The notes beneath the pieces are model-generated. The model saw nothing but the letters and a program-made list of their open reading frames with translations, had not been told where the DNA came from and searched no databases. A DNA stretch of 64,000 nucleotides, from NCBI GenBank assembly GCA_038087875.1, contig CM075996.1, positions 4,218,001 to 4,282,000 of the forward strand, written 5' to 3'. Source of the stretch: Malacoraja senta (lineage: Eukaryota). Below are positions 661-62,237 of this stretch, piece after piece. Position numbers and translations under genes: made by a program. The stretch's first letter is position 1. The number at the start of each line of letters is the position of its first letter.

Positions 661-1863
661 AGTAGCAAGAGGGAGAAAGGTTCTTCATATTGGATGACAT
701 TACAATCTGACCAGCTGTGATTTATGAAGTGGCCGAGCAGGCTTGATGGGCTGAATGACCGAAGCTTGCTCCTAATTTATATGTTTGTACGTGGGAATAG
801 AAACTGCCGACAGTGGGAACTCGAAATGAAAACCCAACTGAGAATTCTGCACCCAGCAGCTCGAGCTGCATTTGGAGGGAGGTCTCTGACCTGAATTGTC
901 AACTCTCTGTCTACAGAAGATGCCTGACTTCACAGGTGTTTGCAGCACTTTGGGTTTTTGCTTATTCATCAGTGGGCATGGCTGCCTCCTTTCAAAAATG
1001 TGATTATTCCCCAATCTCTTCAGTTCCGATTTGTTGCTGCTCCTGAATTCCAATGAGGCAAGCCAATCAATGTGACGCAGCATTTGTGCCATGCAGATAC
1101 TCTCTGGGTGGAGGATTTGTATGAAAGTGCTTACCAATAGTCTCTGATGTTCCTAAACCTTGCCGTCATAAGTTCCAGGAGCAGAATCGGGCCCATCAAG
1201 TCTACTCCGCCATTCAATCATGGCTGATCGATCTCTCCCTCTCAACCCCATTCTCCTGCCTTCTCCCCGTAACCCCTGACACCCGTACTAATCAAGAATC
1301 TGTCAACCTCCGCCCTAAAAATATGCATTGATTTGGCCTCCACAGCCGTCTGTGGCAATGAATTCCACAGATTCACCACCATCTGACTAAAGAAACTCTC
1401 CTCTTCTTCTTTCTAAACGTGCGTCAATTTACTCTGAGGCTATGACCTCAAGTCCTATTAAAACATGAGTAAGTCATGAGGGCTATTTTAACACCTGTTA
1501 ACACTCATGATTTAGTTCTCATGCTACTTTAGACTCCAGAAAGCAGGCACAACAAAATCATTAAAAGTTTAGTTAACTTTAGAAATAACAATTTTTTTTT
1601 TCTACCATAGATGCTGTTGCACCCCGCTGAGTTTCTCCAGCACTTTTGTCTCCATCCCTGGGATAATTCCTGTAAACCTCCTCTAGTGCCTCTCCAACGC
1701 CAGCACATCCTTCTTCAGATATGGGGCCCAAAACTGCACACAATACTCCAAATGCAGTCTGACCAGTGCCTTATCAGGCCTCAGCACTACATACATTACA
1801 AATCTTTCGCTCAAGTTTTGGGGGGGCATAATGATTTAATTTCCTTCCCCTCTCTTGTTCTAG

Positions 1864-1959
1864 GTACCACACAGGCTGCTGACCTTTCAGTTGGTCCCTG
1901 GTGTGGACGTGTGCTTGCTGTGTGGACCAACTCCATCTTTGCAGCAAGTTCAGACAGAG
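1864..1959 (+). CDS. FUZ: FUZ (fuzzy planar cell polarity protein) internal coding exon, 96 nt
   Basis: tag|GTA..GAG|gtgagg. Translates VPHRLLTFQLVPGVDVCLLCGPTPSLQQVQTE, matching recalled human FUZ VPHRLLTLTLLPSLELCLLCGPSPPLSQLYPQ. Confidence 0.9.
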
Positions 1960-2684
1960 GTGAGGCAAAGGTCCTTTACAGCTGTCGTCAGCCAACTGTC
2001 AGCTCTGATTTTGTTTTTTGCACGCTGCTGTTATTTTGCTTCATTGCAGTTTTTCTCCCCCCCCCCCCCCAAACTCTCCTGCAAATCTTTTAACCAGAAG
2101 TTACTGCACAAAGATCAGAAGCTGGATCGGTCGATTGATTGAAAGATCCAGCAGGGAAACAGGCCCTTCGGCCCCCCGAGTCCACTCCGACCATCGATCA
2201 CCCGTTCACCCTAATCTAGTGTCATCCCCCTTCTGCATACCACTCCCACACATTGCGGCCTATTTAACCCACAAACCCGCACGTTATTTGGCCATGGAAG
2301 AAACCGGAGCATCTGGAGGAAACCCATGCAGCCGCACGAGAACGTGCAAACTCCACACAGACAGCACCCGCGGTCAGGATCAAACTCGGGTCTCTGGCGC
2401 TGAGAGGCAGCAGATCTATCCACCGGCTGCGGCACTGAGAGTTGAGAGAGCAAACCTGAATTGATTATCACTCTCTGTGACCAGATTTCACTACATCAGC
2501 AGAGAAGCTGGAGGTCGTTTTACTGACCTATTCGCAAGCGTGGAAAGTAGCCGAGTCAGCTCCTCCGCAGAGTATCATCTACAGTGCAAGCGACTGGAAG
2601 GGGGTTGATATCGTCGAAAGAGTTGGATGTATATTGTTCCTGCAATATGTGACATTATTTGCATTTTCTTTCTCCTGCCTCCAG

Positions 2685-2791
2685 TTAGTGGAACGATTCT
2701 GGAGCCCAGTGCTTGAACCTTTAAAAACATGCCTCAGCTTACATCAGTGCACTTTCCCCATCTGCATTCCTTTACACCACAGCATTATTGG
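2685..2791 (+). CDS. FUZ: FUZ coding exon, 107 nt
   Basis: Pyrimidine tract plus cag|TTA..TGG|gtaagt. LVERFWSPVLEPLKTCLSLHQCTFPICIPLHHSIIG resembles human LLERWWQPLLDPLRACLPLGPRALPSGFPLHTDILG; phase 0 to 2. Confidence 0.88.
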
Positions 2792-3655
2792 GTAAGTTGT
2801 CCTTTGATATTTCAAATAAAATGAGAGATGTCAACCAGACCAGACAAGGGCGGCATGGTGGCGCAGCAGTGGGGCTGTTGCCTAACAGTGCCAGGGACCC
2901 CGGGTTCGATCCTGACTGCGGGTGCTGTCTGTACGGAGTTAGTACGTTCTCCCCGTGACCTGCGTGGGTTTTCTCCGGGATCTCCGGTTTCCTACCACAC
3001 ACTCCAAAGACGTGCGGGTTTCTAGGTGTAAGAAAGAACTGCAGATGCTGGATAAAATCGAAGGTAGACGCAAAAGCTGGAGTGACTCTGCGGGTGAGGC
3101 AGCATCTATGGAGAGAAGGAATGGGTGACGTTTCGGGTCGAGACCCTGCGAGGGTCTCGACCCGAAACGTCACCCATTCCTTCTCTCCATAGATGCTGCC
3201 TCACCCGCTAAGTTACTCCAGCATTTTGCGTCTACCTAGGTTTCTAGGTTAATTGGCTTGGTATGTGTGAATTGTCCCCAGTGTGTGTATGTGGGATGGT
3301 GTTTGTGTGCGGGGATCGTTGGGGGGGGGGTGGACTCGGTGGGCCGAAGGGCTGTTTCTGCGCTGTATCTCTAAAACTAAACTAAACCAGACAATCAGAG
3401 CATGTGCATGTTCAAGACCACAAACACTTAGTTTAGAGATACAGTGTGGAAACGGGCCCACCGAGTCCACGCCTACCATCGTTCACCCGGCACACTCGTT
3501 TTAGGCTATCCCTACATGCTGGGAGTAATTTACAGAAGCCAATTAACCCCCATTCCCCTGCATGTCTTTGGGATGTGGGAGGAAACCGGAGCACCCGGAG
3601 AAAAACCCATGTTGTCACAGGGAGAACGTATTTACTCCACACAGACAAGATCTGT

Positions 3656-3750
3656 AGTCAGGATCCAGCACTATGAGGCATTAACACTCCCGCTGCTCCA
3701 CTTAGTGGAGCAGCGGGAGTGTTAATGCCTCATAGTGCTGGATCCTGACT
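3656..3750. repeat. Perfect palindrome, 47-bp arms with a 1-nt spacer
   Basis: 3656-3702 is the exact reverse complement of 3704-3750. Confidence 0.95.
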
Positions 3751-5746
3751 CTACCCAAGCCGGAGGCCTTCACTTGTCTCTCCTGATTTTATGGAGCTGC
3801 CTCTTGAACATGAGAGAACTTTAGTCCCTATCCTGCCTTGGGAATGATTCCCATTGTGGCGGTCCCTGGGGATTAGGCCACCCCTTGGGTCATCCCCCTC
3901 GGCTCTTGAGGAACAGGGACGATTGTCTGCCCACAGGGTTTCCGGGTTCCTAGTCGGGGGCGTTCTGTGTGTTCGCCAGGATTCATTAAACCTGCCTGGC
4001 GTCTGGCCTTTCCTGACCTCGTCCAGGCCACTACACCATCAACAATATGACATCCCTTGGAAAAACTGGCCTTCCCATCGGGCACAGAATCATCTCAACA
4101 GAAATGACCTCTCCCGCATTGCTCTTTCTCTCTACCGCTCGTTCCTTCCTTATGGCTTTACTCTCTAATTCCCTCTTTCCACTCTCAATTGACTCTCTCC
4201 ACCCCCCGGCTGCTACCTCCCTGAACCTCTCTCCGAACCATTCCATCCTTGCCTCAATAAGCCATTCCATCAAGGCCGTTTCCTTCCCCCCCCTCGCTCC
4301 TCTGCTTTTCGGGGCTAATACCTCCCTGCCCTGCCTCACCCAGCCTGCTCCCTCAACACATCACCCCGTCTCCCCGTCACCGCTTCTCCAATTTACCCAC
4401 TTGTCTGCAACTTTTCTTTCTAGGTAATAAGTGTTCTATCTCTCATCTTTTCAGTCCTCTAAGTGTTGTAAATAATGCTTATCACATTATCTTAAACATA
4501 GCTTTTCTTTCCCTGAGCTCCTTGCAATTCTAACCATCACTCCATCCTACAGACTTTAAAATCTAAGCAGGCTTTTGCTACCTTCCCATTATTTACCCAA
4601 CTGTCTTGCTACTTTTGCCTGCGATTTGTTGGTGTCTGGAAACACACACACACACACACACGGGTTCCCTTCAAGCTTGGGTAAAATTCATCGTCCAATA
4701 TGTGTTCTGCCTTGTTAATATGAAATAATTAAATGCATATATATATTTTCTACAGAAATGATTAATTCCCGAAAATAGGATGTCATGTTATTTGCCACTA
4801 TGGTTTTACTCTAGTGGAGGCTTTCAGCATTTGAAGAACGTTCAACGATGCCACGAAAATAACTGGAATGTTGGCAACTTTGGACGTCGTACAGTGGTTT
4901 AGTTTAGTTTAGAGAAACAGCGCGCAAGCAGGCCCGGCCCACCCAGTCCGCGCCCACCAGCGATCTCCGCACATTAACACCATCCTACACATACTACGGA
5001 CCTTTTACAATTTTACCAAAGTCAATTAACCTACAAACTTGCACGTCTTTGGAATGGGGGGGGGGGGGGTGGGAAACACACACACACCCACACTGGTCAC
5101 GGGGAGAGCGTACAAACTCCGTATAGAGAGCACCTTTGGTCAAGAACGAACCCGGGTGTCTGTTGCTGCAAGGCAGCAATTCGACCACTACACCACCGTG
5201 CTGCCCTAGTGGTGTTGAATGTGGGGCGACAAAATGGTTTGGTGGGATTTTGTTTGGGAGGGATGGTGTTGGATGAAAAAGAGTGAATCCATTGAGATTT
5301 TAAGCGGTAGTTTTGGTTCCTTAAGATTTTATAAGACAGGAGTAATGGGGACGCGCTTGGTTCATTGGGATTGTTTGCCGAAGAGATGGATTGGTACTTC
5401 TAATAACAGTTTAGTATCGTGGGAGCAGTAGAGAGTACAGAACCTTTTGGGAATTCTATCCAAATTCTACCAATTCCAATTTATAGATAGTGGTTCCGCA
5501 TCTGCATCCTGGTCCAGGTGTTAAATATGGCTAATTATCTAATGTTTGCACTTGCTTGGTGCAGTGTTCTTGTATTCACTTTGATTTGCTGAGGTTGTGC
5601 ATTGTTCAGGCTTGGGGACAGTGGTCTGTGAATTGTTGATAGAAATACCAATCCAAGCAGTTCTCAAGGCCGATTACCATATCTCCTCATTCAGCTGTTT
5701 TTTTTTTTTTTTTGGCTTTGGCTGATCTATGGTCTTGTTTCTCCAG

Positions 5747-5826
5747 TCTTCTGCTAATAAACAGGGAACAGAACAAGAATTTATTCACCTTGCAGCCCCA
5801 TGGCGTGGAAAGCAGCCAGCAGCTGG
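5747..5826 (+). CDS. FUZ: FUZ coding exon, 80 nt
   Basis: ctccag|TCT..TGG|gtaagc. (G)LLLINREQNKNLFTLQPHGVESSQQL resembles human GLLLLHLELKRCLFTVEPLG; phase 2 to 1 fits the neighbours. Confidence 0.82.
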
Positions 5827-6239
5827 GTAAGCATCCAGCCGAGCTGCATTACAGCTGATGGCAACAGTGACCGATCTCTAGCGCTGCATTGCCTTAAGGG
5901 CCTGTCCCACTTACGTGTCCTTGGCACGCAAATTACGTGACCTCGTGGTCGCGTTGAGCCTCGATGGTCCCGCGAAGGTCGCTCGCGATTACATGAGTCC
6001 GCACAGCCGTCGGGAGCGCGTGACGTCATTTGAAGATGGACACAAAGCTGGAGTAACTCAGCGGGACCGGCAGCATCTCTGGAGAGAAGCAATGGGTGAT
6101 GTTTCGTGTCGAGACTCTTCTTCAGTCTGAAAAGAAGGGTCTTGACCCGAAACGTCACCCATTCCTTCTCTCCAGAGATGCTGCCGGTCTCGCTGAGTTA
6201 CTCCTGCATTTTGTGTCCATCTTCAATTTTCTTGGCCCC

Positions 6240-6275
<36 letters not shown>

Positions 6276-6372
6276 CCGTAAATGTTTTTTTATTAGATTT
6301 TTAAACAAATGTACAATTTACAAGGAAGGGTAGAAAGCTCACACAATTTTAAAAACCATTTACACATAATTA

Positions 6373-9300
6373 TCAAATTAAAATATTAACATTTTTATCT
6401 ATAATATATTCAACCTCCTGCGGTGACCAGCATTCACAGAAGGCCTCCACAGTCCCCGTGGACACCGCGTGTTCCCTCTCTAGGGACACGCGGGCACGGA
6501 CGTAACCCCGGAAAAGGGGCAGGCAGCCGACCGCTGTGCGGCCATCGACCGCCCGCTGCCTGGACCCGCGAATGGCCATCTTGGCCAGGCCCAGGAGCAG
6601 TCCGACAGGGAGACCCCCTCCTCCCTCCCGACCCTCCCCCCTCTTTACCGGGTGCCCATAAATTAATAGCGTTGGACTAAAATGTAACCAAAACTTGAGG
6701 AGCAGCCCTTTCAGATACTCGAACAGGGGCTGCAACCTCTCGCACTCTATATACACGTGGAACACGGTCTCTTCCTCACCGCAGAAATGACAAGCAGGGG
6801 AAGAGTCCGTGAACCGGCTCAAGTACCTATTACAGGCCACGGCTTTGTGCAAAACTCTCCACCCCAGGTCCCCGATGTAAAGGGGGAGGACTCCCTTGTA
6901 GAGATACCTCCACTGGGGACCGCTCCCCTCGTCAGGTGGTAACACGGACCGCCAGGGTGTGTCTGGACGGAAGACGAGGGCGAGGAAGTGGAGAGTGTGC
7001 AAGAGCAGCCTGTACAGTACACGCCTCTCCGCGCCACGGAATGGCACACTGGGCATCTCAGAAAGGCGGCTCATGTTGCATGGGGCCGGCTCTCGGGGAG
7101 GGTCCCGGGCCATGGGCCCTATGAACAATTCCGACTGAGCGGGGGTAAGCTCGTCCGGAATCGCTCCATGCACACGCCTCTCCTCGATACCCACCGTCAC
7201 AGCCACGACACCCCCCTCCCCCTGAGGAGCAGGGCCCTGGCTGAAGGTGACCAAATTCCTGGCCTTCAGGACTTCACGGTAAAAGCCAGGCAACTCCCGC
7301 CTAGCGCGTCGACTCATGCCCGCTACCGGGAGCCGGGAGCCCTCCTGAAGGCACCGCCCCTGACGGAAAAAGTACGTCGCCAGCACGTGCCATTTAGGAG
7401 GGTAGTCCGAGTAGACGTACCTCCGCAGGGTCCTGAGTCGGAGAGCCGCCACCTGGGTACGAATACAGACCAGCGCCTGACCACCCTCCTCCAACGGGAG
7501 ACTCAGAACCCCAGCAGAGACCCAGTGGTTCCTCTCCCCCCAGAAGAAGTTGACCAATCTCCTCTGTAACATGGTTATAAAATAAGAGGATGGGACCATA
7601 GTGGCCATCCGGTACCACAGTAGAGAGGCCACCAGCTGGTTTATAACTATAGCCCTGCCCCGGTAAGAGAGCACACCAAGTAGGCCTGACCAACGTCCCA
7701 GCCGGGCGACCACTTTCGCCTCCAGCTCCTGCCAGTTCGCCGGCCACCCCTCCTCAGCGGGACTCAGGTAGACCCCCAGATAAAGGAGGTGCGTTGTACT
7801 CCACGCAAAACCTGCCATCTCCTCCGGCAGGGAGTCCACCTGCCACCCACCCATCAAGAGACCAGAACACTTCCCCCAGTTGATCCTGGCGGAGGATGCA
7901 GCCGAGAAAACCTGCTGGCACTCACGCATCCTCCGCAGGTCAACAGGGTCGGTGAACATCAGAAGGACATCATCGGCGTAGGCCGAGAGAACCACCTCCA
8001 TCCCCGGCCCCGGTAAAGCCAGGCCTGTCAACCGCCTCCGGAGAAGGCACAGGAAAGGCTCGACACAGATGGAATACAGCTGGCCGGACATGGGACATCC
8101 CTGACGAACCCCCCTCCCAAAGGGAATGGGGGCCAACAAAGAGCCGTTGACCTTAACAAGGCATTCTGCAGCAGTATATAACAGTCGGACCCAGGCCACA
8201 AAATGCGGTCCAAATCCGAACGCCTGCAGAGTCCCAAGAAGGTAGTCGTGCTCCACCCTGTCAAACGCCTTCTCCTGGTCGAGGGAGAGAAAGGCGACCG
8301 ACTGACCAGCCCCCTGGGACAGATGGATCAGGTCCCGGAGCAGATGGATATTGTCCTGGATGGACCGGCCCGGGACTGTGTACGACTGGTCAGGGTGGAT
8401 CACCTGGGACAGCACGGGACCCAGGCGATTCGCCAATGCCCTTGCAAAGACTTTATAGTCCGTGCTGAGGAGAGAGACCGGGCGCCAGTTCTTCAAAAGG
8501 CGAAGATCGCCCTTCTTGGGCAGCAGGACAACAACTGCCCTGCGCCAAGAGAAAGGCATCTCCCCGGTCGCCATGCTCTCCCCCAGGACCTTCATATAGT
8601 CGCCCCCCAGGACATCCCAGAAGGCTCTAAGGTACTCCACAGTCAGCCCATCCAGCCCTGGAGACTTGCCCCTCCTAAGCTGGTGCAGGGCACCAGTCAA
8701 CTCCTCCAGAGTTAGGGGATCATCCAGGTGTTCAGCCACATCATTGCACACTACGGGTAAGCCCTCCCACAGGACTTCTTGCGCCTCCCCACTCGATGTG
8801 CCAGCTGAGAACAGAGTCCTGTAGAAAGACCGAACCGAGGCACCAATGCTCTCTGGATCTGTGACAGAGGAGCCATCATCCGCAAGCAACTCTACAAGCT
8901 GCCTGCGGGCTCCTCGCCCCTTCTCCAGAGAAAAGAAAAAGGGGGAGGCGCGGTCCAGGTCGTGCAACATCTGGACCCGCGACCTCACATACGCACCCCG
9001 GGACCTCCTAAGCTGCAAGTCCCTCAGTGCTCCCTTCTTCTCCTGGTATTCCTCCCACTCACACGAAGCCCCACCAGTCTGATCCAGATGAGCCTCCGAG
9101 TCGAGCAACTCTCTCTCAAGCCGTCCGATCTCGGATTCCCGCCCCTTGGTCGACCCCCTCGCATAGTCCTGGCAAAACTGACGGACGTAGACTTTCCCCA
9201 CGTCCCACCACTGCCTTAGGGAAAGGAAACGCCCCTGCCTCTCTCTCCACCTCACCCAGAACTGCCTGAATGAATCCCGGAATCGGCAATCCTCCAACAG

Positions 9301-10050
9301 CTGGCTATTTAAATGCCAGTACGCGGACCCTGCCCGTGTGCGCGCTGGGATAAAGTCCACTCGCACCAGGCAATGGTCCGAGCATGGCGCCGGCTGCATG
9401 GAGGCTGCCGAAACACAAGAGACATAGGCCTTGGACACGTATAAATGATCAATACGGGACCCACCACCCTCAAACCTGTACGAGAAGGCGTTAGAGTCAG
9501 GATGGAAATTCCGCCAAGCATCTACCAGCTCAAAAGAGTCCACCATCTCCCTCAAAGTCTTCACTGCTCCCGGGTCACGCTGAACGCCAGAGCGATCTCT
9601 TGTCTCAAGGGCACAATTAAAATCTCCCCCAAGGAAAACACACTCCCCACGGTCGATAGTATTCAACAACGTGGTCACTTCCCCTGTTAAGCGCGTCTGC
9701 ATTGCGCCGATCTTGGGGGCGTACACATTAACGAAGTGTAATGGCACACCATCCAAGCGCACGGCCAGATACAGCAAACGGCCTGGTACAACCTCCTGCA
9801 CTTTGAGGATCTCCGGCTGGAAAGACGGGGCCAACAGGAAGGCTACTCCACTCGATTTGGAGCTGAGATGACTCATATAGACCCCCCCTTCCCACTCCAG
9901 GAGCCATGTGGGTTCATCACTAGCCACAGTGTGTGTTTCCTGCAGGAAGCTCACCGCATATCTCCCGTCTCTGAGCACTGAGAGATGGTGAAACCTACGG
10001 AGAGACCCCCTGCCCCCATTGATATTAAGGCTGGCTATAGTGAGCTTCAT
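6373..10050 (-). CDS. Tx1 ORF2: APE endonuclease + reverse transcriptase + C-terminal CCHC zinc finger, 1225 aa, uninterrupted
   Basis: APE motifs SLNING, FLQETH, NVYAP, GGDFN, SRID, SDH. RT motifs KSPGLDG, NWRPVSLL, LDQEKAFDRV, GVRQGCPMSG, YADD, YLG. C-terminal CHFCGEEETVFHVYIEC. Confidence 0.95.
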   Translation of the reverse strand: MKLTIASLNINGGRGSLRRFHHLSVLRDGRYAVSFLQETHTVASDEPTWLLEWEGGVYMSHLSSKSSGVAFLLAPSFQPEILKVQEVVPGRLLYLAVRLDGVPLHFVNVYAPKIGAMQTRLTGEVTTLLNTIDRGECVFLGGDFNCALETRDRSGVQRDPGAVKTLREMVDSFELVDAWRNFHPDSNAFSYRFEGGGSRIDHLYVSKAYVSCVSAASMQPAPCSDHCLVRVDFIPARTRAGSAYWHLNSQLLEDCRFRDSFRQFWVRWRERQGRFLSLRQWWDVGKVYVRQFCQDYARGSTKGRESEIGRLERELLDSEAHLDQTGGASCEWEEYQEKKGALRDLQLRRSRGAYVRSRVQMLHDLDRASPFFFSLEKGRGARRQLVELLADDGSSVTDPESIGASVRSFYRTLFSAGTSSGEAQEVLWEGLPVVCNDVAEHLDDPLTLEELTGALHQLRRGKSPGLDGLTVEYLRAFWDVLGGDYMKVLGESMATGEMPFSWRRAVVVLLPKKGDLRLLKNWRPVSLLSTDYKVFARALANRLGPVLSQVIHPDQSYTVPGRSIQDNIHLLRDLIHLSQGAGQSVAFLSLDQEKAFDRVEHDYLLGTLQAFGFGPHFVAWVRLLYTAAECLVKVNGSLLAPIPFGRGVRQGCPMSGQLYSICVEPFLCLLRRRLTGLALPGPGMEVVLSAYADDVLLMFTDPVDLRRMRECQQVFSAASSARINWGKCSGLLMGGWQVDSLPEEMAGFAWSTTHLLYLGVYLSPAEEGWPANWQELEAKVVARLGRWSGLLGVLSYRGRAIVINQLVASLLWYRMATMVPSSYFITMLQRRLVNFFWGERNHWVSAGVLSLPLEEGGQALVCIRTQVAALRLRTLRRYVYSDYPPKWHVLATYFFRQGRCLQEGSRLPVAGMSRRARRELPGFYREVLKARNLVTFSQGPAPQGEGGVVAVTVGIEERRVHGAIPDELTPAQSELFIGPMARDPPREPAPCNMSRLSEMPSVPFRGAERRVLYRLLLHTLHFLALVFRPDTPWRSVLPPDEGSGPQWRYLYKGVLPLYIGDLGWRVLHKAVACNRYLSRFTDSSPACHFCGEEETVFHVYIECERLQPLFEYLKGLLLKFWLHFSPTLLIYGHPVKRGEGREGGGGLPVGLLLGLAKMAIRGSRQRAVDGRTAVGCLPLFRGYVRARVSLEREHAVSTGTVEAFCECWSPQEVEYIIDKNVNILI

Positions 10051-12149
10051 TTTGAAAGTACACTTGATCTTTTACCCGACCCCGGTGATGGATTGGAGCC
10101 GCCCCTACCCTTCTTCCCTCTCTTTAGGGCCTTAAAAAGCTCTTGGAACTGGCGCCTCTCATTTCTTACTAGCCCCGCCTCATTCCCCTTCTTCTGAAGG
10201 ATGGCATGAATGGACTGCATGGGCGCCATCAGGTCCGACCAGCGGTCGACAGCCAACTCCACCTTGTTCCTACTCCCTCTAGTGTCCTTTAAGAACTTCC
10301 GAAGTTCCCAGACTTCGACAAGTTGAGACACGGGGCCGCGGGTGGAGCAGTCCGTCAACTCATTGTCGATGGACTCCGGGTACCCCTCCTCCTCACACTC
10401 AATGTCCGAGCCCGAGTCCAGATGGTTACTACTCTCAGCCGCCTCGCTCACCCCTCCCTGTGAGGTGGGCATTCCAGCCACATCACACAGTCCCTCCTCT
10501 GTCACCATCCCACCCCCAGGATCAGTGACAGGGGCAGGTACCGGTGCCTCTGACCGCGGCAAGCTTTCTGACAGTTGGCCAGTCTCCTGCACGCTCCCAT
10601 CGCCCTCTGTAACCAGATTGGGAACAGTGAACTCAGAGCAAGTCTCCGGGCCTTGCTGTAAGCGGGTCTGTCTGGAGTCCGACCTAAGGACACGATCCAA
10701 AACGATCTTGCCCTCCTCCGCACCCAGGGTATCCGCCCCTGCACCGTCACCCAGAGAGTCCCCGTCCCCCACCACCAGGTGAATCACCCCACTGTGTCCC
10801 TCAGGGGCCGATGTTACTGGAGTCTCCCCTGCTCCCTCAACCAGTGGGGCATTACACCCCTCAACTGGGCTTGTAGCCTCAACGGGGAGCTCATGTTGGG
10901 GACCCACCCCCTCACCCAATTCCCCCCCTTCAGGCTGCCCCTGGTCATCCACTAAGCTAGCAGACATGTTTTCTGGGGGAACAGCCCCCAAGAGCAATAT
11001 ATCGCCACTCTCAGGTGGCCCCAGACCTACAGAGGCATCCTCCCCCTCAGAGGAAACTTGCCCTGGGTACCCCACCTCAACAGGAGGGGAAGGCTCCCCT
11101 TCAGGTTGCCCCTGAACTTCAGGGCCCTTCTCTGTATCGGACGACCCATGCCTCCTCCTCTTCGAACCACTGGCGTACGGTGGTACGGTGAGCTCCATTG
11201 CAGAAGCCTCTACCTCCACATTACCTTCTATCTCAGAGGCGAGCATGAAATTATCTGCTTCCTGGGGTCCCGCTTGGAGGTGATCATCTTCTAGGGGATC
11301 AGCCTGGAGATGTTTCTTCTTTTTATTGACTTTCCTCCCCTGCTGATGCTCCCAAACCTTCCCATCCACCCTACGCACTTCTCCGGCATCCACCGCCACA
11401 GGTACGGGACATGGGGGTGGTGGGGGGATAGGGGTTGGGGGTAGGGGAGTAAAGCCTTCACGGGCCACCGTGGTAAAACCAGCAGCCCCAGATGGGCCAG
11501 TAGTGCTTTCCCGTGCCATCGTGGTGGAACTGGCAGCCCGGGTCCTGGGACAATTCTTGCGAAAATGCCCCACCTGTTTGCAACCGTGACAACGCACTTG
11601 GCCCGCATTCCAGAACACGCGATAGGAGAAATCATCCACCTCCACCTCAAAACTCCCCTCCGTGTCCATCCCCTTTGCCAACTGTATATACACGCGACGC
11701 TTGAACGTATATACATGCTGCATCTCAGGATCGTCAAACCTGTACAACAGTTTGGTGAGCCCTGACCGCACCTCCCCCAGCTTCCTTACATGTGGGAGCA
11801 GGAGCGCATCCGGAACAAAAGTGGGAACATTGGACAGAATGACCGGCAAAACGGGACCCCCCCATGGGTCCACCGCCGCGAAAATCCCCCCTGCTGTTAC
11901 CCCCCTTTCCAGAGCCAGAGCCACCGCCTGTTCAGTCTTTAGTATAACCACAACCTTCCCACTGACCACCGCGCCCGAGACTATGGCTTTCTTGCCAACA
12001 GTCTCACCCAACGCATCTAGAAAGGCTTTTAAGGGCAGGTTGCTCTTCATGTACATTTTTACACCATATGTGCGCCCCATCAACTCATGGCCCTCAGTCT
12101 CTGAGACTGCCGACCGCACGACAGCTGCATAACTCTGAGGGGCCGCCAT
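10047..12149 (-). CDS. Tx1 ORF1 (gag-like RNA-binding protein), 700 aa from the ATG at 12149
   Basis: Starts MAAPQSYAAVV. Tx1-type VILSNVPTF..HVYTFKRRVYIQL block, zinc knuckle CHGCKQVGHFRKNC and a long acidic/Pro-rich linker. Stop overlaps the ORF2 start (ATGA). Confidence 0.9.
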   Translation of the reverse strand: MAAPQSYAAVVRSAVSETEGHELMGRTYGVKMYMKSNLPLKAFLDALGETVGKKAIVSGAVVSGKVVVILKTEQAVALALERGVTAGGIFAAVDPWGGPVLPVILSNVPTFVPDALLLPHVRKLGEVRSGLTKLLYRFDDPEMQHVYTFKRRVYIQLAKGMDTEGSFEVEVDDFSYRVFWNAGQVRCHGCKQVGHFRKNCPRTRAASSTTMARESTTGPSGAAGFTTVAREGFTPLPPTPIPPPPPCPVPVAVDAGEVRRVDGKVWEHQQGRKVNKKKKHLQADPLEDDHLQAGPQEADNFMLASEIEGNVEVEASAMELTVPPYASGSKRRRHGSSDTEKGPEVQGQPEGEPSPPVEVGYPGQVSSEGEDASVGLGPPESGDILLLGAVPPENMSASLVDDQGQPEGGELGEGVGPQHELPVEATSPVEGCNAPLVEGAGETPVTSAPEGHSGVIHLVVGDGDSLGDGAGADTLGAEEGKIVLDRVLRSDSRQTRLQQGPETCSEFTVPNLVTEGDGSVQETGQLSESLPRSEAPVPAPVTDPGGGMVTEEGLCDVAGMPTSQGGVSEAAESSNHLDSGSDIECEEEGYPESIDNELTDCSTRGPVSQLVEVWELRKFLKDTRGSRNKVELAVDRWSDLMAPMQSIHAILQKKGNEAGLVRNERRQFQELFKALKRGKKGRGGSNPSPGSGKRSSVLSK

Positions 12150-14440
12150 CTTTAGGGCGTGGCACAACACACAAAGTATCAGTAGTTTATATCCAAAGCA
12201 GTCTTTCTGCTGTTGCTGCACCTCCACTCTTTTGCAGCAGTTAAATAGTCCTGTGAAGGCTTTCTTGGCAAGCAACAGAAGCAGTCTCCTCCTGATAAGA
12301 TAGGAAATGTCCGTGCCAATCCTCCCCGTCGTAAAAAAATGGAGCTTCCTTATGCTTCTTCCTCAGGCCTCCGACTCCTCCCCGGCTTCAACGAAATCCA
12401 AGGCACTGTTGCCGTTCTTACCCAGCCCACCTGGACCGGGCAAGTCGGTGTAGGAGGGAGCTTTCCGATGTTACTGACCACAAACACCACTCTAGACTCA
12501 GCTCCCACTCGTTCAAGTGTAACTTGGCCTTCCGCCAGCCACTGCCGCTCCTACGACTTTACAGATACACGGACAAATCCTCCCTAATTAGAGGAATCCT
12601 TGAACAAAGAAAGTCTCTGCAGATCGACAAAGCTCTGAACTGCAAAGTCTGACTGCTTTTGTTTCTCCCCGCCAAACAAAACCTTCTGAAAAGTTCATCA
12701 AATCCTCCCCGCCAGCAGAACAGCTCCTCACCTGGCCCTGCTCTGGGAGTAGGAGTGGGGTCGGATCCGGATCCGCAACGGCCGTGAGCCCCAGGCCGAG
12801 CTCGGCGATCGTTTGCCTGCTTCTGCTGCTGTTGGAGGTGAGACGTTGCGTTGCGCCAGGGTCTTGGGCCTGTCCCACTTTGGCCGTCAGTTACGCGACA
12901 GGCCGGTGGCGCACGAAGATTTCGTTCGCTACAAAGATTTCGGAACCCCGCGCGATGTCGCGCACAACTTCATACCCCTCCGCGCTTCTCAGTGGGACCG
13001 GCCACACGATGCCCGTGCGCCTCAACACGACCACGAGGTCGCGTAATTTGCGTGCCAAGGACACGTAAGTGGGACAGGCCCTTTACTCTGCCGGTGCATG
13101 GTAAAGGAGTTGGACCTGCTCCATCTGATGGCATCTAGGACTGGCTTCCTCATCCTCTCCTTCCCCCCTCCCTCACTACACCCGCAATTGGGAGAAGGTA
13201 GTAGAAAAACAGCGCGGCATGCTTAGGTTAGTTTAGAGATACAGCACGGAAACAGGCCCTTCGGCCCACCGAAGCGATCCCCGCACATTAATAACACCCT
13301 ACACGCACTAGGGACAATTTTTTACATTTTTTTTACATCAAGCCAATTAACCTACAAACCTGCACGTCTTTGTAGTGTGGGAGGAAACTGACGATCTCGG
13401 AGAAAACCCACGCAGGTCACGGGGAGAAAGTACAAACTCCGTACAGACAAGCACCTGTAGTCAGGATCGAACCCGGGTCTCGGGCGCTGCACGGCAGTAG
13501 TCTACCGCTGCGCCACCACCGTGCCTCCGACGGCATTGCTATTCCTGTCACCTAGACGGGAAACAGAACCACACACTATCCAAAGATGGACACAAAATGC
13601 TGGAGTAACTCAGCGGGTCAGGCAGCATCTCTGGAACAAAGGAATAGGCGACGTTTCAGGTCGACCTTTTTCAGACCCGAAATGTCACCTATTTCCTTTC
13701 TCCAGGGATGCTGCCTGACCCGCTGAGTTACTCCAGCATTTTTTGTCTATCTTGGGTGTAAACTAGCATATGCAGATCAGGTAAGGATGGAAAGTTCCCC
13801 TCCCTGAAGGATAATGGGGAGCCCAGTGAGTTGTTACAGCAATCCCATATTTTTGTAGTCACCTTTTACTTGTAGTGCTAAACTCCAAGTGGCTGAAGTT
13901 GGAGTAGCTGAATTTAAATTCCACATGTTGGGATTTGAACTTGTTTCTCTCTGGATTGATAGTAATTGATAGTAGACAAAAGTGCTGGAGAAACTCAGCG
14001 GGTGCAGCAGCATCTATGGAGCGAAGGAAATAGGCAACGTTTCGGGCCGAAACCCCTGATAGTTTTTGGATTACCAGTTGTTTAACCACCATGCCTCCAT
14101 GGTGATGTTTCGGGCTGAGGGGAGAGGTATAGGGACAGGTGTGGCATCTCCTACGGTTGCTCCCAGAGTGAAGAGGGACTCGACCCGAAACATCGACTAT
14201 TCCTTTTCTCCAGAGATGCTGCCTGACCCCCCCTGAGTTACTCCAGCTTTTGTGTCGATAACTTTTTTATGAGCTTGTTGATTCAAGAAGGGGGTTTACC
14301 TCTTTCCCAAGGGCATTAATCGTCAGCCTCCTTAACAATGCCGCATCTGAAGGATGAACAATTGGGTCCCTCTGGGCCAGCGCCTTTGTGTAGCAAAGCG
14401 TTCCGGCCCCTCACAAACTAAGTGCTCCTTTCCCAAGATC

Positions 14441-14950
14441 TTTAGCTATTGAGGGAGTGCAGCGTAGGTTTACAAGGTTAATTCCCGGGATGGCGGGACT
14501 GTCATATGCTGAGAGAATGGAGCAGCTGGGCTTGTACACTCTGGAGTTTAGAAGGATGAGAGGGTATCTTATTGAAACATATAAGATTGTTAAGGGCTTG
14601 GACACGCTAGAGGCAGGAAACGTGTTCCCGATGTTGGGGGAGTCCAGAACCAGGGGCCACAGTTTAAGAATAAGGAGTAAGCCATTTAGAACGGAGACGA
14701 GGAAACACTTTTTCTCACAGAGAGTGGTGAGTCTGTGGAATTCTCTGCCTCAGAGGGCGGTGGAGGCAGGTTCTCTGGATGCTTTCAAGAGAGAGCTAGA
14801 TAGGGCTCTTAAAGATAGCGGAGTCAAGGGATATGGGGAGAAGGCAGGAACGGGGTACTGATTGGGGATGATCAGCCATGATCACATTGAATGGCGGTGC
14901 TAGCTCGAAGGGCTGAATGGCCTACTCCTGCGCCTATTGTCTATTGTCTA
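14441..14950 (+). mobile_element. CR1/HER1-like LINE 3' end
   Basis: QRRFTRLIPGMAGLSYAER..TRGHSLRI..FSQRVVSLWNSLP..; (CTATTGT)n tail. Confidence 0.9.
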
Positions 14951-15021
14951 ATTTTCCTCCTGGGATGAATAAAGTTCTATCGTATCGTATCGAAAGGCAT
15001 TAACCGTGATTTATTTTACAG

Positions 15022-15123
15022 GGACAGTACTCAGTCCTGAGAGGCGCAGATCAGTTCTGCGGCAATTTTACACCCTGGCCGTCTCTGCGTACTTCCCAGC
15101 AGAAGCAAGTGAGGACAAGCCTG
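15022..15123 (+). CDS. FUZ: FUZ coding exon, 102 nt
   Basis: ttttacag|GGA..CTG|gtacgt. GTVLSPERRRSVLRQFYTLAVSAYFPAEASEDKP resembles human SPEQRRRLLRNFYTLVTSTHFPPE; phase 1 to 1. Confidence 0.88.
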
Positions 15124-15143
15124 GTACGTGAACATAACCTCGA

Positions 15144-15661
15144 TAGACAATAGACAATAGGTGCAGGAGTAGGCCATTCGGCCCTTCAAGCCAGCACCGC
15201 CATTCACTGTGATCAAGGCTGATCATCCCCAATCAGTACCCGTTCCCGCCTTCTCCCTCTATCCCCTGACTCTGCTATCTTTAAGAGCCCTATCTAGCTC
15301 TCTCTTGCAAGTATCCAGAGAACCTGCCTCCACCACCCTCTGAGGCAGAGAATTCCACAGACTCACCACTCTCTGTGAGAAAAAGTGTTTTCTCATCTCT
15401 GTTCTAAATGGCTTACCCCTTATTCTTAAACTGTGTGGCCCCTGGTTCTGGACTCCCCCAACATCGGGAACATGTTTCCTGCCTCTAGCGTGTCCAAGCC
15501 CTTAACAATCTTATATGTTTCAATAAGTTACCCTCTCTTCTTTCTAAACTCCAGAGTGTACAAGCCCAGCCGCTCCATTCTCTCAGCATATGACAGTCCC
15601 GCCATCCCGGGAATTAACCTTGTAAACCTACGTACACTGCACTCCCTCAATAGCAAGAATG
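15144..15661 (-). mobile_element. CR1/HER1-like LINE 3' end, inverted relative to 14441-14950
   Basis: Reverse complement of the same family with a (CTATTGT)n tail. Confidence 0.9.
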
Positions 15662-16275
15662 CATGACCAGCCATGCAAATGGGCTTCTGTTTTCCACCGA
15701 GCTCCCATGCTGAGATCGGCTATTCCAGTCGGTCCTGCTTGCTGTGAGCGTGGTGGACAATTTCACATCGAAGTAGGAAGGGGAGGGGAAACATTTCGCC
15801 ATAGAAATCACTAGACGATGATCATAAAGCATTGTCCTAACAATGCAAGTTGGCAATCAAACGCAGGATTTCTTAGTGTTTAAGAAGGAACTGCAGATGC
15901 TAGAAAAATCTAAGGTAGACAACAATTCCGGAGAAACTGCTTTCTCCCTCTTTCCCCTCAAACTTCCCAGCTCTCCCACAGCCCACTGTCTCCGCCTCTA
16001 CCTTTGTTCTTCCCACCCCCACATCAGTCTGAAGAAGGGTCTTGACCCCAAAACGTCACCTATCCCTTCTCTCCATAGATGCTGCCTCACCCGCTGAATT
16101 ACTCCAGCATTTTGTGTCTACCTCAGGATTTCTTAGATTGCACCCTAGAACTGATCACAATGTGGGTGTGTTTAGTAACGCCCCTGTATTGTGCTTGAAT
16201 ATGGAGCTGTGAATGTTTATACCCCCCCCCCCCACCATTGGGAGTGTTCAGACTTATTTTCCCTCCTTCTTCTAG

Positions 16276-16478
16276 CAGTTCTCAACGAGGAATTCCACGC
16301 CGGCTTCACCCACTCGCCGACAGAGTGCTACGTTGCCGCCGACGACCACAAGAGCTACGGCATCCAGACCCGGCAGCACCAGCTGCTGCTGACCTTCACG
16401 CCGGAGACCCCCACCTTCTCCCTGCGCAACATCGCCACCAAAACGCTCAACCTTTTGACGAAAGAAGTGCCTTTCTGA
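16276..16478 (+). CDS. FUZ: FUZ terminal coding exon (stop TGA 16476-16478)
   Basis: cttctag|CAG. AVLNEEFHAGFTHSPTECYVAADDHKSYGIQTRQHQLLLTFTPETPTFSLRNIATKTLNLLTKEVPF*; the C-terminus resembles human LLLLLSPQSPTHGLRSLATHTLHALT. Confidence 0.88.
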
Positions 16479-17808
16479 GCCAACTGGGGACCCCATGAGG
16501 CGAGGGGTGAAGCAGCTGGCGACCACGTTCCATCTCACTCCACACCGCCCCCCCCCTTGGGAGGCTTCAGCCGCATAGACGGTCAGCCCAAGCATGGCGG
16601 CTGTCGGAGTTACCCCAGCTGGTGCTCCCTCCCGGCTCTCTGGACTGTGCTCCTCAACGATGCTTGTGGTGCATCACCAGGCCCAGGAATGGCCACGGTG
16701 AGTACTTGTTTAACCACGTCCATGTTTCAGGCCGTCCAGTGGTAGTAGGCCTGAAACCAGCCCTGCGAGTGGAACAGTGCCCCACTGAGTTATGATCTGC
16801 CACATGCTCTCGAAAGAGAGAAGATGGGTGCTGGGGTGCGGCGGCACAGCGGTAGAGTCGCTGCCTCACAGCCCCAGGGACCCGGGTTCGATCCCGACTA
16901 CGGGTGCTGTCTGTCCAGAGTTTGTACGTCCTCCCCGTGACCGCGTGGGTTTTCTCCGGGAGCTCTGGTTTCCTCCCACATTCCAACGATGTATTGGTTA
17001 ATTGGCTTCGTTAAGAATTGTAAATTGTCCCCAGTGTGTAGGATAGTGAAAGTGTACGGGGATCGCTGGTCGGCGCGGACTCATTGGGCTGATGGGCCCG
17101 TTTCCGCGCTGTACCTCCAAAGTCTGAAGTTCTCTAGGCACAAAAAAAGCTGTGTTTACTCAGCCCAACTGTAAAGAAGGAATGGTGAGTTGTGATTCAG
17201 CGGGTCGGCTTGTCCCCCTCCAACAGGGTGCTGTGCTGAACCACCTGATGGCTCCCAATTTCCTTGGTCACGGTGAGACAACATTCCTCGCAGTACAGTG
17301 GGGTTGTTTTAAAATAGAGCAGCATCTAAATGGTAGGGTGGAGAATCAAGGAACTGCAGATGCTGGTCTACAAATAGAACACACGATAGGTGCAGGAGTA
17401 GGCCATTCGGCCCATCGAGCCAGCACCACCATTCAATGTGATCATGGCTGATCATCCCCAATCAGTACCCCGTTCCTGCCTTCTCCCCATATCTCCTGAT
17501 TCCGCTATCTTTAAGAGCCCAATCTCGCTCTCTCTTGAAAGTAACCAGAGAACCGGCCTCCACCGCCCTCTGATACACAGCAGGTCAGGCAGCATCTCTG
17601 GAGAAGAGGAGAACACCTTCAAAGTCTGCATGCCTTGAGGAGGTTTCGCCAGTGGGGCAGTAAAATGGAGCAACAAGGAACTGCAGATTCTGGTTTACCA
17701 AAATAGACTTAGTGCTGGGAGTAGGACTTGGTGAAAGTAGGTTTTTGTAGTGCCCCAACTTCATACGTCCAGATTTTCCCAAGAGGAGGAAAAGAAGTGG
17801 CCTGACTT

Positions 17809-18068
17809 GAAACATCACCTGTCCATGTTCTCCACAGATGCTGCCTGATCCGCTGAGTTACTCCAGCACTCTGTGAAACATCACCTGTCCATGTTCTCCA
17901 GAGATGCTGCCCGACTCGCTGAGTTACTCCAGCATTCTGTGAAACATCACCTATCCATGTTCTCCACAGATGCTGCCTGACCCGCTGAGTTACTCCAGCA
18001 TTCTGTGAAACATCTCCTATCCATGTTCTCCACAGATGCTGCCTGACCCACTGAGTTACTCCAGCACT
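17809..18068 (+). repeat. Tandem repeat, ~4 x 66 bp, derived from the Penelope terminal module
   Basis: GAAACATC.. units start at 17809, 17875, 17941 and 18007. Confidence 0.9.
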
Positions 18069-19580
18069 TGGTGTCTTTATTGAAGTGGTTTGCTATTACA
18101 GAAATTTGTATGGGCAATGCCCAAAAGGTGTATGTATCCTCATGTGAATATACTAAAGGACTTAATTCTTAGTTATCATGGCATCATGTGTTTCTCCATA
18201 TAACGTAATCCTTTAAAAGGCCCACGACAAATACCTCTGATGTTCACAGTGTTTCTAGCTTCAGACTCCTCCTTGCATAGTTTGTGATTTCCACTGAAAG
18301 GGCCTGGTATTAACAGCATCGGGCTCAGCCACATCCCTGGACCACGTTAAAGCCAAGGATGTGAGAGAATTGCCATTGCAGTCATTTGACAGTGTTTTTA
18401 CTTTTTTGGGGGACATCCGGCATCTGATTAAGCTCTGTGCTGATTCTCAAGTCCTTTGACAAAATGCCTTGTATCCTTGTACCTTGTACGTGTGGTCATC
18501 ACTTCTGTAGAGTCCACCAGGGACTATACTGGAAGATGGACCATTTTATGCTGGACAATTTTTACATTTATCAAGCCAATTAACCTACACACCTGTACGT
18601 CTTTGGAATGTGGGAGGAAACCGAAGATCTCGGAGAAAACCCACGCAGGTCACGGGGAGAACGTACAAACTCCGAACAGACAGCGCCCGTAATCGGGATC
18701 GAACCGGCGCTGCGTTCTCTGTAAGGCAGCAACTCTACAGCTGCGCCACAGTGACTGCCCATGGACACACACTGAAAAATCACAAGCAACGCATACAGAG
18801 TGTAGCCACCTCAACCATCCAGAGCAAGGGAGAAGCAACTTGCAACGTTTCACCCTGGTGATGTGGGCTTGATAGGTGGACTCTGAACCATGGCCCATTG
18901 AGACTAATTCTGACTGGGACTCGGCTCGAAAGTCAAGGAGTAGAGTCTGCCCTCATTGATAAAGTGACTCATTGCAGTCTGCCACTGAGGTTTGGAGTGA
19001 AATGGTCACACCATTGAGATACAAAGACGTGGAATAGGGCAAGTAGCTACCGGGGTTTCATGAATGGAAGACATGAGGAACTGCGGATGCTGGTTTAGGA
19101 AGGAAAAAAGACCCAAAGTTCTGGAGTAACTCAGCGGGTCAGGCAGCATCTCTGGAGAACATCAACAGGTGATGTTTTGGGTCAAGACCTTTCTTCACAC
19201 GGATTGTGGTGGGGGTGGAGGGAAGGAAGTTGGAGGATATGTGGGGGAAGGGCAAAGCCTGGCAAGTGCTAGGTGGATATGGCGAGGAGGGGGGGGGGGG
19301 GGGGGGGTTTGATCAACAGATGATTGGACAAAGGCCAAAGATGGAGACAAAAGGTGTGAGATAAGGATAGATGTGTGAATTGTGAAGCCAGAGGAAGGAA
19401 GATTGGTGGAAGGGGACGGGGAACAGAGGTAGAAGAGGATAGGGGGAGTGAAGAAATGAGTGGGATTCCTAGTGGGGCACAGGTTAGAGAAGGGGCGAGT
19501 GAAGTGGGGGAGTTGTTAGTAGGTAATTACCTGAACTTGGAGAAATCAATGTTCACAATATTCATACCATCAAGTTGTAA

Positions 19581-19773
19581 AGGGCCTGTACCACTTGGGC
19601 GTCATTTGCGCGTAATTTACGCAACATAATTTTCGCGCATGGTGATGCATTACGCGTGCCTGGTTCGTGGTGACGTAGGTAGTGACGCGCAGTGCCCCAG
19701 GATTTTGGTATTTGCAAAATCTTCACGCACCATCTGCGTGACGCGCAAATGACGCCCAAGTGGGACAGGCCCT
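19581..19773. mobile_element. Harbinger-type MITE
   Basis: ~33-bp TIR AGGGCCTGT(A/C)CCACTTGGGCGTCATTTGCGCGT; TAA TSD on both sides. Confidence 0.85.
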
Positions 19774-20286
19774 TAAGCTATCCAAGTTTCTTGAAGGCTT
19801 TGCTGTTGCGCTGTTCTTTAACACTGAATTAGTCAATACACCCACAGGACCTTCATGTTTTAGCCTGTTTTCACAACTTTAGTTGTTGTTATCTTGCTGT
19901 TTCATGCCACCATTTATTTTCGGACCATAACCCGCAGAACCCAGATTTAATCAACGCATCTTTGAACCACACACCAACGAGCCACTCCCTGACCATCACG
20001 TTTAACATCACAGGCTTTTGAAAGAGCCTTTGTTGTCAGAACTGAGCCAGAACAGTTGGGATGAGCTCGTATTTGTCATGACCGTGTTTGTCGTCCATCA
20101 TGGAATGATATATAAATGATGCAACTTATCCATTTGTCGGTCACACTGTCTACGTTCTCCAGCCAAAGAGGCTTGTCTTGTCTTGTCAATGTCACAAGTG
20201 ATAGGAGCAGAATTAGGCCATTCGGCCCATTAAGTCTTCTCCGCCATTCAATCATGGCTGATCCTATCTCTCCGTCCTAACCCTTT

Positions 20287-31477: not shown

Positions 31478-31677
31478 NNNNNNNNNNNNNNNNNNNNNNN
31501 NNNNNNNNNNNNNNNNNNNNNNNNNNNNNNNNNNNNNNNNNNNNNNNNNNNNNNNNNNNNNNNNNNNNNNNNNNNNNNNNNNNNNNNNNNNNNNNNNNNN
31601 NNNNNNNNNNNNNNNNNNNNNNNNNNNNNNNNNNNNNNNNNNNNNNNNNNNNNNNNNNNNNNNNNNNNNNNNNNNNN
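31478..31677. other. Assembly gap (200 N), probably hiding two AP2A1 exons
   Basis: Run of N. The segments expected between ..RQLS and MYRLTL (PQQEAQKIF.. and LLGFG..LRLEPN) were not found in the window. Confidence 0.9.
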
Positions 31678-33791: not shown

Positions 33792-33996
33792 AGCCCCTGT
33801 CCCACTTTCACGATCTAATTCAGGACCTCTGCCGAGTTTGCCCTTGACTCACACTCGCACCATGGTCGTCACGAGGTCGTAGGAGGTCGTAGGTACTCGT
33901 GGCATCAAGTAGGTCGGGGCGTTTTTTCTAGCCTGATGAAAAATGCCCGCGAGTAAAAAAGGTGGTGAATTAGGTCGTGAAAGTGGGACGGGGGCT
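33792..33996. mobile_element. Harbinger-type MITE
   Basis: TIR AGCCCCTGTCCCACTTTCACGA / TCGTGAAAGTGGGACGGGGGCT; TTA TSD. Confidence 0.82.
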
Positions 33997-39473: not shown

Positions 39474-40182
39474 AGGGCCTGTCCCACTTACGCCACCTTT
39501 TCGGCGACTGCTGGCACGCGTCATAGGTCGCCAAAAATTTTCAACATGTCGAAAATTCAACAGAGACCAGAAAGATGCTACGACTCCTTATTACAAACAT
39601 AGGGTGCAACAAAATGTTGATAATAAATGGTTTCAGGACCTGGCGAGGGGTGAGTAAAGATATGAAGTAGGAGCATCCCTTTCATATTGTCCTATCTTAT
39701 CTTATTTTTTATTTTTCCTCCTTTTGGTTTTTCTCTTTTTTTAAAAATAAACTATTTCTTGTGGTTTAGGTCCATATGGGTGTTCCTGGACCACTCTTTC
39801 AATCACTCACTTACTATCTTTACTAACTCTTTCTATCCTTTTCTCTTATTAAAGTTTAAAATAAGAATTGGTACAAGAAAAGTATAAACTTACGTTATTG
39901 GAGATTATTGTAATGTACAATACTTCTAATAAAATAAAATTTAAAAAAAGAAAGATGCTACGACTCTTTGGGTGACTAGGAGACCTCTCACGACCATACA
40001 GGCGACCCCCTGACGACATGCCCCCAGGGGTCACCTGTTTGGACGTGAGAGGTCTCCTAGTCACCCAAAGAGTCGTAGCATCTTTCTGGTCGCTGCTGAA
40101 TTTTCAACATGTTGAAAATTTTCGGCAACCCATGATGGGTGCCGGCGGTTGGCGAAAAGGTCGCGTAAGTGGGACAGGCCCT
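39474..40182. mobile_element. Foldback (palindromic) Harbinger-type MITE interrupted by a 5'-truncated LINE
   Basis: TIR AGGGCCTGTCCCACTTACGC, TAA TSD, arms inverted almost to the centre. Insert 39587-39948 has an A-rich tail and an 18-bp TSD AGAAAGATGCTACGACTC. Confidence 0.85.
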
Positions 40183-62026: not shown

Positions 62027-62237
62027 AGGGCCTGTCCCACTTGGGCGTCATTTGCGCGCCACGCAGATGGCGCGCGACGATTTTGTACATCCCAAAATCC
62101 TGGGGAGCCACGCACGATCGCGCGTCACTGCCAACGTCACCACGCACCATGCACACGTAATGCGCACCATCACGTGCACGGCACGACATGACTCGTAAAT
62201 GATGTTGCGTAAATTACGCCCAAGTGGGACAGGCCCT
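62027..62237. mobile_element. Harbinger-type MITE, same family as 19581-19773 in opposite orientation
   Basis: TIR AGGGCCTGTCCCACTTGGGCGT; TTA TSD; interior aligns by eye to the reverse complement of the 19.6-kb copy. Confidence 0.85.

Follow-up and report, generated by a model that had tools for sequence, protein, structure and literature searches.

The Tx1L retrotransposon of Xenopus laevis was described as site-specific for a DNA transposon (PMC1950540), and the insertion of Tx1 into Tx1d is named as a known strategy (PMC6719617). Many Tx1 families were reported to be target-preferring, a family being called target-specific when >20% of its flanks are of one sequence type; the same source describes Tx1-9_AMi of crocodilians, whose preferred site lies ~300 bp inside the elements of three Harbinger families, and a truncated-copy test against hitchhiking for Tx1-Mar / SINEU (PMC4494074). 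In our study, a Tx1 element was found nested inside a Harbinger-type DNA element in a window of 64,000 nucleotides (nt) (contig CM075996.1, positions 4,218,001 to 4,282,000, forward strand; coordinates below count from the first letter of this stretch). The nested element is real, and its anatomy, its two open reading frames (ORFs) with catalytic motifs and its lineage were demonstrated. We consider it likely that it is a young full-length non-LTR (non-long-terminal-repeat) retrotransposon of the Tx1L lineage, whose family prefers one site in an abundant non-autonomous Harbinger-type element.

The outer element was found at 5897-13082, flanked by TTA on both sides. A sequence-only reading had proposed ~60-bp terminal inverted repeats (TIRs) with a TTA target-site duplication (TSD) around 7.2 kb, a palindrome at 6032-6224 and a full-length 6.5-kb Tx1 with a candidate 11-bp TSD. 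All of these were recovered; the palindrome was slightly wider, and the Tx1 was 6,489 nt long, lying on the minus strand at 6244-12732 with a 32-nt poly(T) at 6244-6275. The parts of the composite, with its host element written as a miniature inverted-repeat transposable element (MITE), are as follows.

5894..5896: left TTA TSD of the DNA element, from the window sequence
5897..5958, plus strand: left TIR, 62 nt, 60/62 identical to the right TIR
5959..6029: left MITE interior, CpG-rich (CpG observed/expected ratio, o/e, 1.42 for 5897-6029); the window holds no other long copy
6030..6226: high-copy palindrome, 197 nt, with a hammerhead-like core disrupted in this copy, from self-complementarity, fold and sister copies
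6233..6243: Tx1 TSD copy at the poly(A) end, 10/11 against 12733-12743
6244..6372, minus strand: Tx1 3' untranslated region (UTR), AATAAA and 32-nt poly(A), from the window sequence
6373..10050, minus strand: ORF2, 1,225 amino acids (aa), apurinic/apyrimidinic endonuclease (APE), reverse transcriptase (RT) and C-terminal CCHC, from Pfam Exo_endo_phos, RVT_1 and zf-RVT
10047..12149, minus strand: ORF1, 700 aa, CCHC knuckle at residue 187, C-terminal half long and of low complexity, from a motif scan and a weak zf-CCHC match
12150..12732, minus strand: Tx1 5' UTR, 583 nt, its 5' end fixed by the TSD and by a contig join landing at 12733
12733..12743: Tx1 TSD copy at the 5' end, from comparison with 6233-6243
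12744..12865: MITE interior beside the target site, GC-rich, attached to the palindrome in contigs without Tx1
12866..13020, plus strand: inner unit opening with a second TIR-like end; similarity of ~81% to the termini of 200-bp MITEs (19581 and 62027)
13021..13082, minus strand: right TIR, 60/62 identical to the left TIR
13083..13085: right TTA TSD of the DNA element, from the window sequence

Both ORF1 (12149-10047) and ORF2 (10050-6373) were open, overlapping in ATGA, and ORF2 contained all 11 of the 11 motifs sought, including the catalytic ones. The zf-CCHC match of ORF1 was weak (E 0.013), and no sequence homologue was found for this protein at E<=0.001; its feature-based look-alikes (Atlas) fell in clusters with zf-CCHC / ZCCHC3 RNA-binding domains, with scores of 0.91-0.94. 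The agreement of the two Tx1 TSD copies would arise by chance with a probability of roughly 0.002, as a rough estimate. The duplication may be 12 nt long, because the next T reads as tail or as target, and its one mismatch may reflect CpG decay or a flank brought along from the donor transcript. When the Tx1 and one TSD copy were taken out, a 686-nt element was left, with the insertion site 347 nt from its left end and 339 nt from its right end. The site was G+C-rich, with no L1-type T-tract, and neither a second Tx1 copy nor a second target site was found within the window.

The closest match of ORF2 was the Xenopus Tx1L ORF2 (YTX2_XENLA; 1,246 bits, 51%), with proteins from turtle and sturgeon next, among 195 matches in 8,000 scored candidates; the remaining relatives across the RT were mostly <=41% identical. 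Among five named close relatives, the highest local identity was to the shark Heterodontus (63% over 29% of the query); the elasmobranch origin suggested by the sequence-only reading is plausible. A quick RT tree of 112 rows was built, for which 111 of 152 proteins were kept, 11 being dropped for <250 aligned residues and the rest having no RT match. In this tree the query fell in an 8-row clade with Tx1L, a sturgeon row and five turtle rows, with a Shimodaira-Hasegawa-like approximate likelihood ratio test (SH-aLRT) value of 100. The order of APE endonuclease (N-terminal), RT and CCHC (C-terminal) in ORF2, the grouping of the RT with Tx1L, the zinc knuckle in ORF1, the poly(A) tail and the TSD are all features of the Tx1 clade.

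Two regions of ORF2 differed from Tx1L. The endonuclease hairpin loop, which is tied to target choice in the account of PMC1950540, was 4 residues shorter than in Tx1L, and the same shortening was found in the Heterodontus protein (P0070). After the RT (window ~7150-7300) the protein was ~80 aa shorter than in Tx1L and the teleost relatives. This gap was common to P0121, P0123 and P0124 and was not present in P0122, P0126 or the named relatives spanning the region. Since three independent relatives have it, the absence of the ~80 residues is read as a sublineage trait and not as damage; a copy-specific deletion was considered for the short ORF2 and was rejected for the same reason. No ORF2 relative was found in a search of viral contigs, and a search of genome contigs gave 11 loci of 31-36% identity, too distant to inform on target. 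Loci L005-L015, with L1/Tx1-like ORF2 at 31-36% identity, lay on contigs of bacterial metagenome-assembled genomes (MAGs) assigned to Anaerolineae, Metamycoplasmataceae and Dehalococcoidia; they are probably animal host DNA binned into MAGs.

The TIRs of the outer element gave 63 nt at 97% in a second computation. Four other elements with the same terminus were found in the window (19581-19773, 33792-33996, 39474-40182 and 62027-62237), and matching TTA or TAA flanks were present in 5/5 same-terminus elements, the composite included. A preference for TTA/TAA (TWA) is typical of PIF/Harbinger target sites. These elements require such flanks; the TTA match by itself is therefore weak evidence, and it was rejected as sole proof that the two ends belong to one element. 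The stretch shared with the left end by the other same-terminus copies was 16-41 nt only, and the two outer ends are tied to one element because their identity spans 62 nt. The mismatches in the TIRs (two) and the Tx1 TSD (one) were every one a CpG transition, and CpG o/e was 1.3-1.4 in the MITE arms vs 0.49 in the window downstream; for these reasons the element is regarded as young. PIF/Harbinger elements have a 3-bp TSD and TIRs (PMC9179366), as found here. Their usual TIR is 25-50 nt vs 62 nt in the present element, which also differs in having no linked transposase and in its mosaic interior, consisting of the palindrome and an inner TIR-like end. [quoted passage not shown] Same-terminus MITEs made up ~2.9% of the window. 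According to PMC9179366, Harbinger was not found in the elephant shark, and a check of other cartilaginous fishes was called for; if the window is elasmobranch, TWA-flanked MITEs are common in it. A search of viral contigs with the TIR pattern gave 2 matches, and in neither did the likeness to the window extend past the matched word by more than a few letters.

Public contigs contain related copies as well as forms of the site that lack the Tx1. Among 24 public runs listed (9 studies), 23 contained part of the stretch, and four runs with four different organism labels (X1, X3, X4 and X7) were aligned to it at 85% likeness; the alignment omitted 6233-6284, and the contig figures given here are those among the matches listed. 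A join from 6217 to 12733, bypassing the Tx1, was found in X1 (3 contigs), X3 (1) and X4 (3), that is, in three of the four runs and three differently labelled organisms; these joins are consistent with an empty site. The right-hand junction with the Tx1 was found in the run of a fourth organism, X7, whose assembly is small (151 million letters). Here one contig (record 32, 12354-12760; 20 differences, one gap) carried a Tx1 ~95% identical to that of the window and extended 28 aligned letters beyond the Tx1 5' end, across the TSD, into the same MITE flank. Its depth (33.2) was near that of the neighbouring Tx1 records (39.6 and 56.9), and it was the sole contig listed at 12427 and 12599. The contig ended 29-30 letters beyond the junction, which would be the point where a 31-mer assembly graph merges with the commoner empty target; record 1 of X1 showed a comparable stop 22 letters into the left TIR. 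No single contig in the four runs spanned the whole stretch. No RNA dataset was among the listed runs that contain part of it, which says nothing for or against expression. A search of metagenome contigs with the target-flank pattern gave 2 matches, with no likeness to the window except for the matched word and, at most, a few adjoining letters.

The summed depth dropped from the 3' to the 5' end of the Tx1 in 4/4 runs, by several-fold to 100-fold. In X1 it fell from 92,000-239,000 at 6250-6999 to 12,000-20,000 at 11000-12499, and in X7 from 1,800-11,000 to 36-70. This 3'-heavy profile is the shape expected of independent, 5'-truncated retrotransposition, and it points to ordinary retrotransposition as the main route of spread. 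Records 30 and 31 of X7 showed 96 differences in 2,288 letters (4.2%) with 0 gaps. Among 40 of the 1,043 difference rows, 34 were in ORFs and 32 were seen in X7; 7/9 of the ORF2 differences were synonymous, where 30% were expected (p = 0.004). In a neutral simulation with substitutions only, both ORFs stayed open in 147/1,000 replicates at 1% divergence and in 26/1,000 at 2.1%. Because of the gap-free divergence, the synonymous ORF2 changes and the rarity of open ORFs in the simulation, the X7 junction is probably not explained by one inherited insertion, and the contig evidence appears to favour separately active lineages at the same site. The proposal of the sequence-only reading that this Tx1 family targets the MITE thereby gained support that is independent but thin, from the empty-site joins and from the diverged Tx1 of another organism, which has this 5' flank too. 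An abundant join at 6480-6710 was also present in X1 (depth 1,457) and in X4, omitting 229 nt of coding sequence for the ORF2 C-terminus with 7 other letters between; it is possibly a non-autonomous derivative of this Tx1 family.

Several observations weigh against a site-preferring family. The empty-site joins had 24-27 letters on the short side, with the intervening letters unread, and they began at 6217, 15 nt short of the expected 6232, a shortfall that would be due to the omission of 6233-6284. That omission also means that no 3' junction of another copy lay within the compared region, and X7 gave no empty-site join. The shared flank came from one contig, and its 28 aligned letters are below the 31-letter bar for bridging. 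The depth at 85% likeness pools subfamilies and gives no copy number, and the 40 differences scored are a small part of the 1,043. Two of the five same-terminus MITEs were nested, the second with an unrelated poly(A) insert, so nesting alone is not rare, although these MITEs occupy a mere ~2.9% of the sequence. With a TIR divergence of 2/62, the MITE could still date back to the split from the X7 organism, and the locus of the X7 contig may be orthologous to the copy described here. In an alternative reading, a non-specific or weakly biased Tx1 hit the MITE once, the shared flank being then an inherited insertion or a short flank piece carried at the 5' end of the family. A LINE-type (long interspersed nuclear element) insert in 2/5 MITEs, a flank seen on a single outside contig ending at 12760, a TSD mismatch that is already present and the neutral-looking ORF1 differences (6/23 synonymous, among the same 40 rows) all suit such chance nesting. 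We nevertheless consider it unlikely, since open ORFs, the absence of gaps at 4.2% and mostly synonymous ORF2 changes are not expected under neutral decay, the junction contig has a depth like that of the Tx1 body, and the nearest characterised relative is site-specific.

It is quite unlikely that the Tx1 entered the MITE once or rarely and was then copied mainly as a passenger, a Harbinger transposase acting in trans on the 7.2-kb unit. The near-perfect, CpG-rich TIRs (o/e 1.3-1.4) do indicate a young MITE family, and identical 5' junctions in two organisms are predicted by this route as well. However, a passenger should decay neutrally, whereas ORF2 looks selected and has no gaps; the strong 3' excess implies that many copies are truncated and arose independently; and no transposase domain was found among the 105 open frames of >=95 aa elsewhere in the window, a count that covers the window and no other part of the genome. 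For SINEU-3 in a Mariner, this alternative was tested and discarded (PMC4494074). A site-preferring family would still allow the composite to move as a whole now and then. The two ends could also come from two adjacent MITE copies, of which the right-hand one would span 12866-13082: inside the MITE, a TIR-like end in forward orientation at 12866 outlines a 217-nt unit, the size of the other window MITEs, and TWA flanks often match by default. This is extremely improbable, as the inner end matches over 15 nt only (against 62 nt for the outer TIRs) and is without a TWA flank, and contigs connect the palindrome to 12733. In X1 contigs a further join, 12911 to 5992, was found at depth 231, which suggests sibling MITE families with swapped ends.

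On the favoured reading, the MITE would have landed first, at a TTA in an intron. The ORF2 endonuclease would then have nicked the plus strand where the 11-nt duplicated site ends on the right. Reverse transcription would have started at this nick, primed on the poly(A) tail, and the TSD would have been produced by another nick 11-12 nt off. The Harbinger family may in this way steadily provide new, harmless landing sites, and the Tx1 would spread mainly via its own target-primed reverse transcription. A wider proposal is distinctly improbable in its entirety: that the Tx1L lineage is an old DNA-transposon specialist in which Harbinger targeting was kept or re-evolved from cartilaginous fishes to crocodilians, and that the present branch is still active, with a remodelled endonuclease loop reading a G+C-rich site beside a cruciform-forming palindrome, and also rides intact in a transposase-mobile 7.2-kb composite, so having two routes of spread.

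The window Tx1 very probably belongs, as one more member, to the group of Tx1 elements that target transposons. Like Tx1L in Tx1D (PMC1950540, PMC6719617), it is a LINE of APE type with two ORFs that lies in a non-autonomous DNA transposon, and Tx1L is both its best ORF2 match and a member of the same RT clade. The two systems differ in their hosts, Tx1D being a non-autonomous piggyBac (PMC4494074) whereas the host element here has 3-nt TWA flanks; in the longer endonuclease loop and post-RT region of Tx1L; and in the bases beside the inferred nick, which are not the AGTT given for Tx1L (PMC1950540). A closer precedent than the one cited by the sequence-only reading, Tx1L in Tx1D, was found in Tx1-9_AMi, which by its description inserts preferentially ~300 bp from an end of Harbinger elements (PMC4494074), in crocodilians and not in the vertebrate group of the window. 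In Tx1-Mar / SINEU, Tx1 machinery likewise favours a DNA transposon, Mariner-N4_AMi; those elements are Keno-related and their copies are old (85-87% to the consensus), whereas the window copy is intact (PMC4494074). Set beside the >20% flank criterion, the sharing of target flank beyond the window copy amounts to one outside contig with the same 5' flank, the 3' junctions being outside the compared region. No title or abstract describing a cartilaginous-fish Tx1 that targets Harbinger was found, in a search that excluded Repbase and subscription journals, where one may be recorded.

If the targeting holds, the window Tx1 is an APE retrotransposon that is intact, was inserted recently and prefers one site; its target is defined and G+C-rich, and its endonuclease loop differs from that of Tx1L. 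It would form a natural pair with Tx1L for studying how APE endonucleases switch targets and would be a candidate for site-directed insertion work, and the targeting of DNA transposons by retrotransposons would be extended to one more vertebrate group, the third. Both the principle and the use of Harbinger as a target have been published before, and the gain is a new testable example rather than a new kind of system.

The palindrome showed a self-complementarity of 88.6% and a fold z of -21, and is probably Penelope-derived. Its family was represented by dozens of copies across the window (e.g. at 276, 23249, 27583, 30805, 32863, 41888 and 63556). A core like the minimal hammerhead, with a bulged base, a short helix II and a palindromic CG, was found in 7 sister palindromes and was broken in the copy of the composite; 7/8 of the hammerhead-motif matches in the window overlapped palindrome copies. 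The minimal hammerhead motif of Penelope repeats is described in PMC4209133, and the core of the sister palindromes is similar to it; the present palindrome differs from Penelope-like elements in having no linked Penelope ORF and, in the composite, in its broken core. An Rfam scan gave nothing at the gathering score. The palindrome is included in the empty-site joins and for that reason seems to be a regular component of the host MITE family, not an insertion of its own in this copy. A 66-nt tandem array, with a unit related to the palindrome, was present at 17808-18068.

In the MITE at 39474-40182, with TAA flanks, an AT-rich poly(A) fragment of 362 nt (39587-39948) was enclosed by an 18-nt TSD without mismatches. 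The fragment gave no match to the Tx1 by blastn or tblastn; it probably represents the 3' end of a different LINE family.

The composite was found in an intron of a FUZ-like gene, beginning 67 nt past the donor site of the candidate exon at 5747-5826, with the Tx1 antisense to the gene.

5747..5826, plus strand: candidate host exon of the FUZ-like gene, from a splice-site scan, with no Pfam match in the exon itself

Exon-like frames on the plus strand matched Fuz_longin_2 at 1864-1959 and Fuz_longin_3 at 16278-16475, and further candidate exons were present at 2685-2791 and ~15030-15125. We take the gene to be FUZ rather than HPS1 or MON1, from its synteny with an adaptin gene. The composite filled most of one ~9-kb intron, and a frame at 14446-14676 in the same intron resembles the C-terminal part of a CR1/L2-type LINE ORF2. 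An assembly gap of 200 N was present at 31478-31677. The FUZ-like gene (1864-16478, plus strand) and an adaptin large-subunit gene (32328-54469, minus strand), with adaptin domains at 32 and 54 kb, were convergent.

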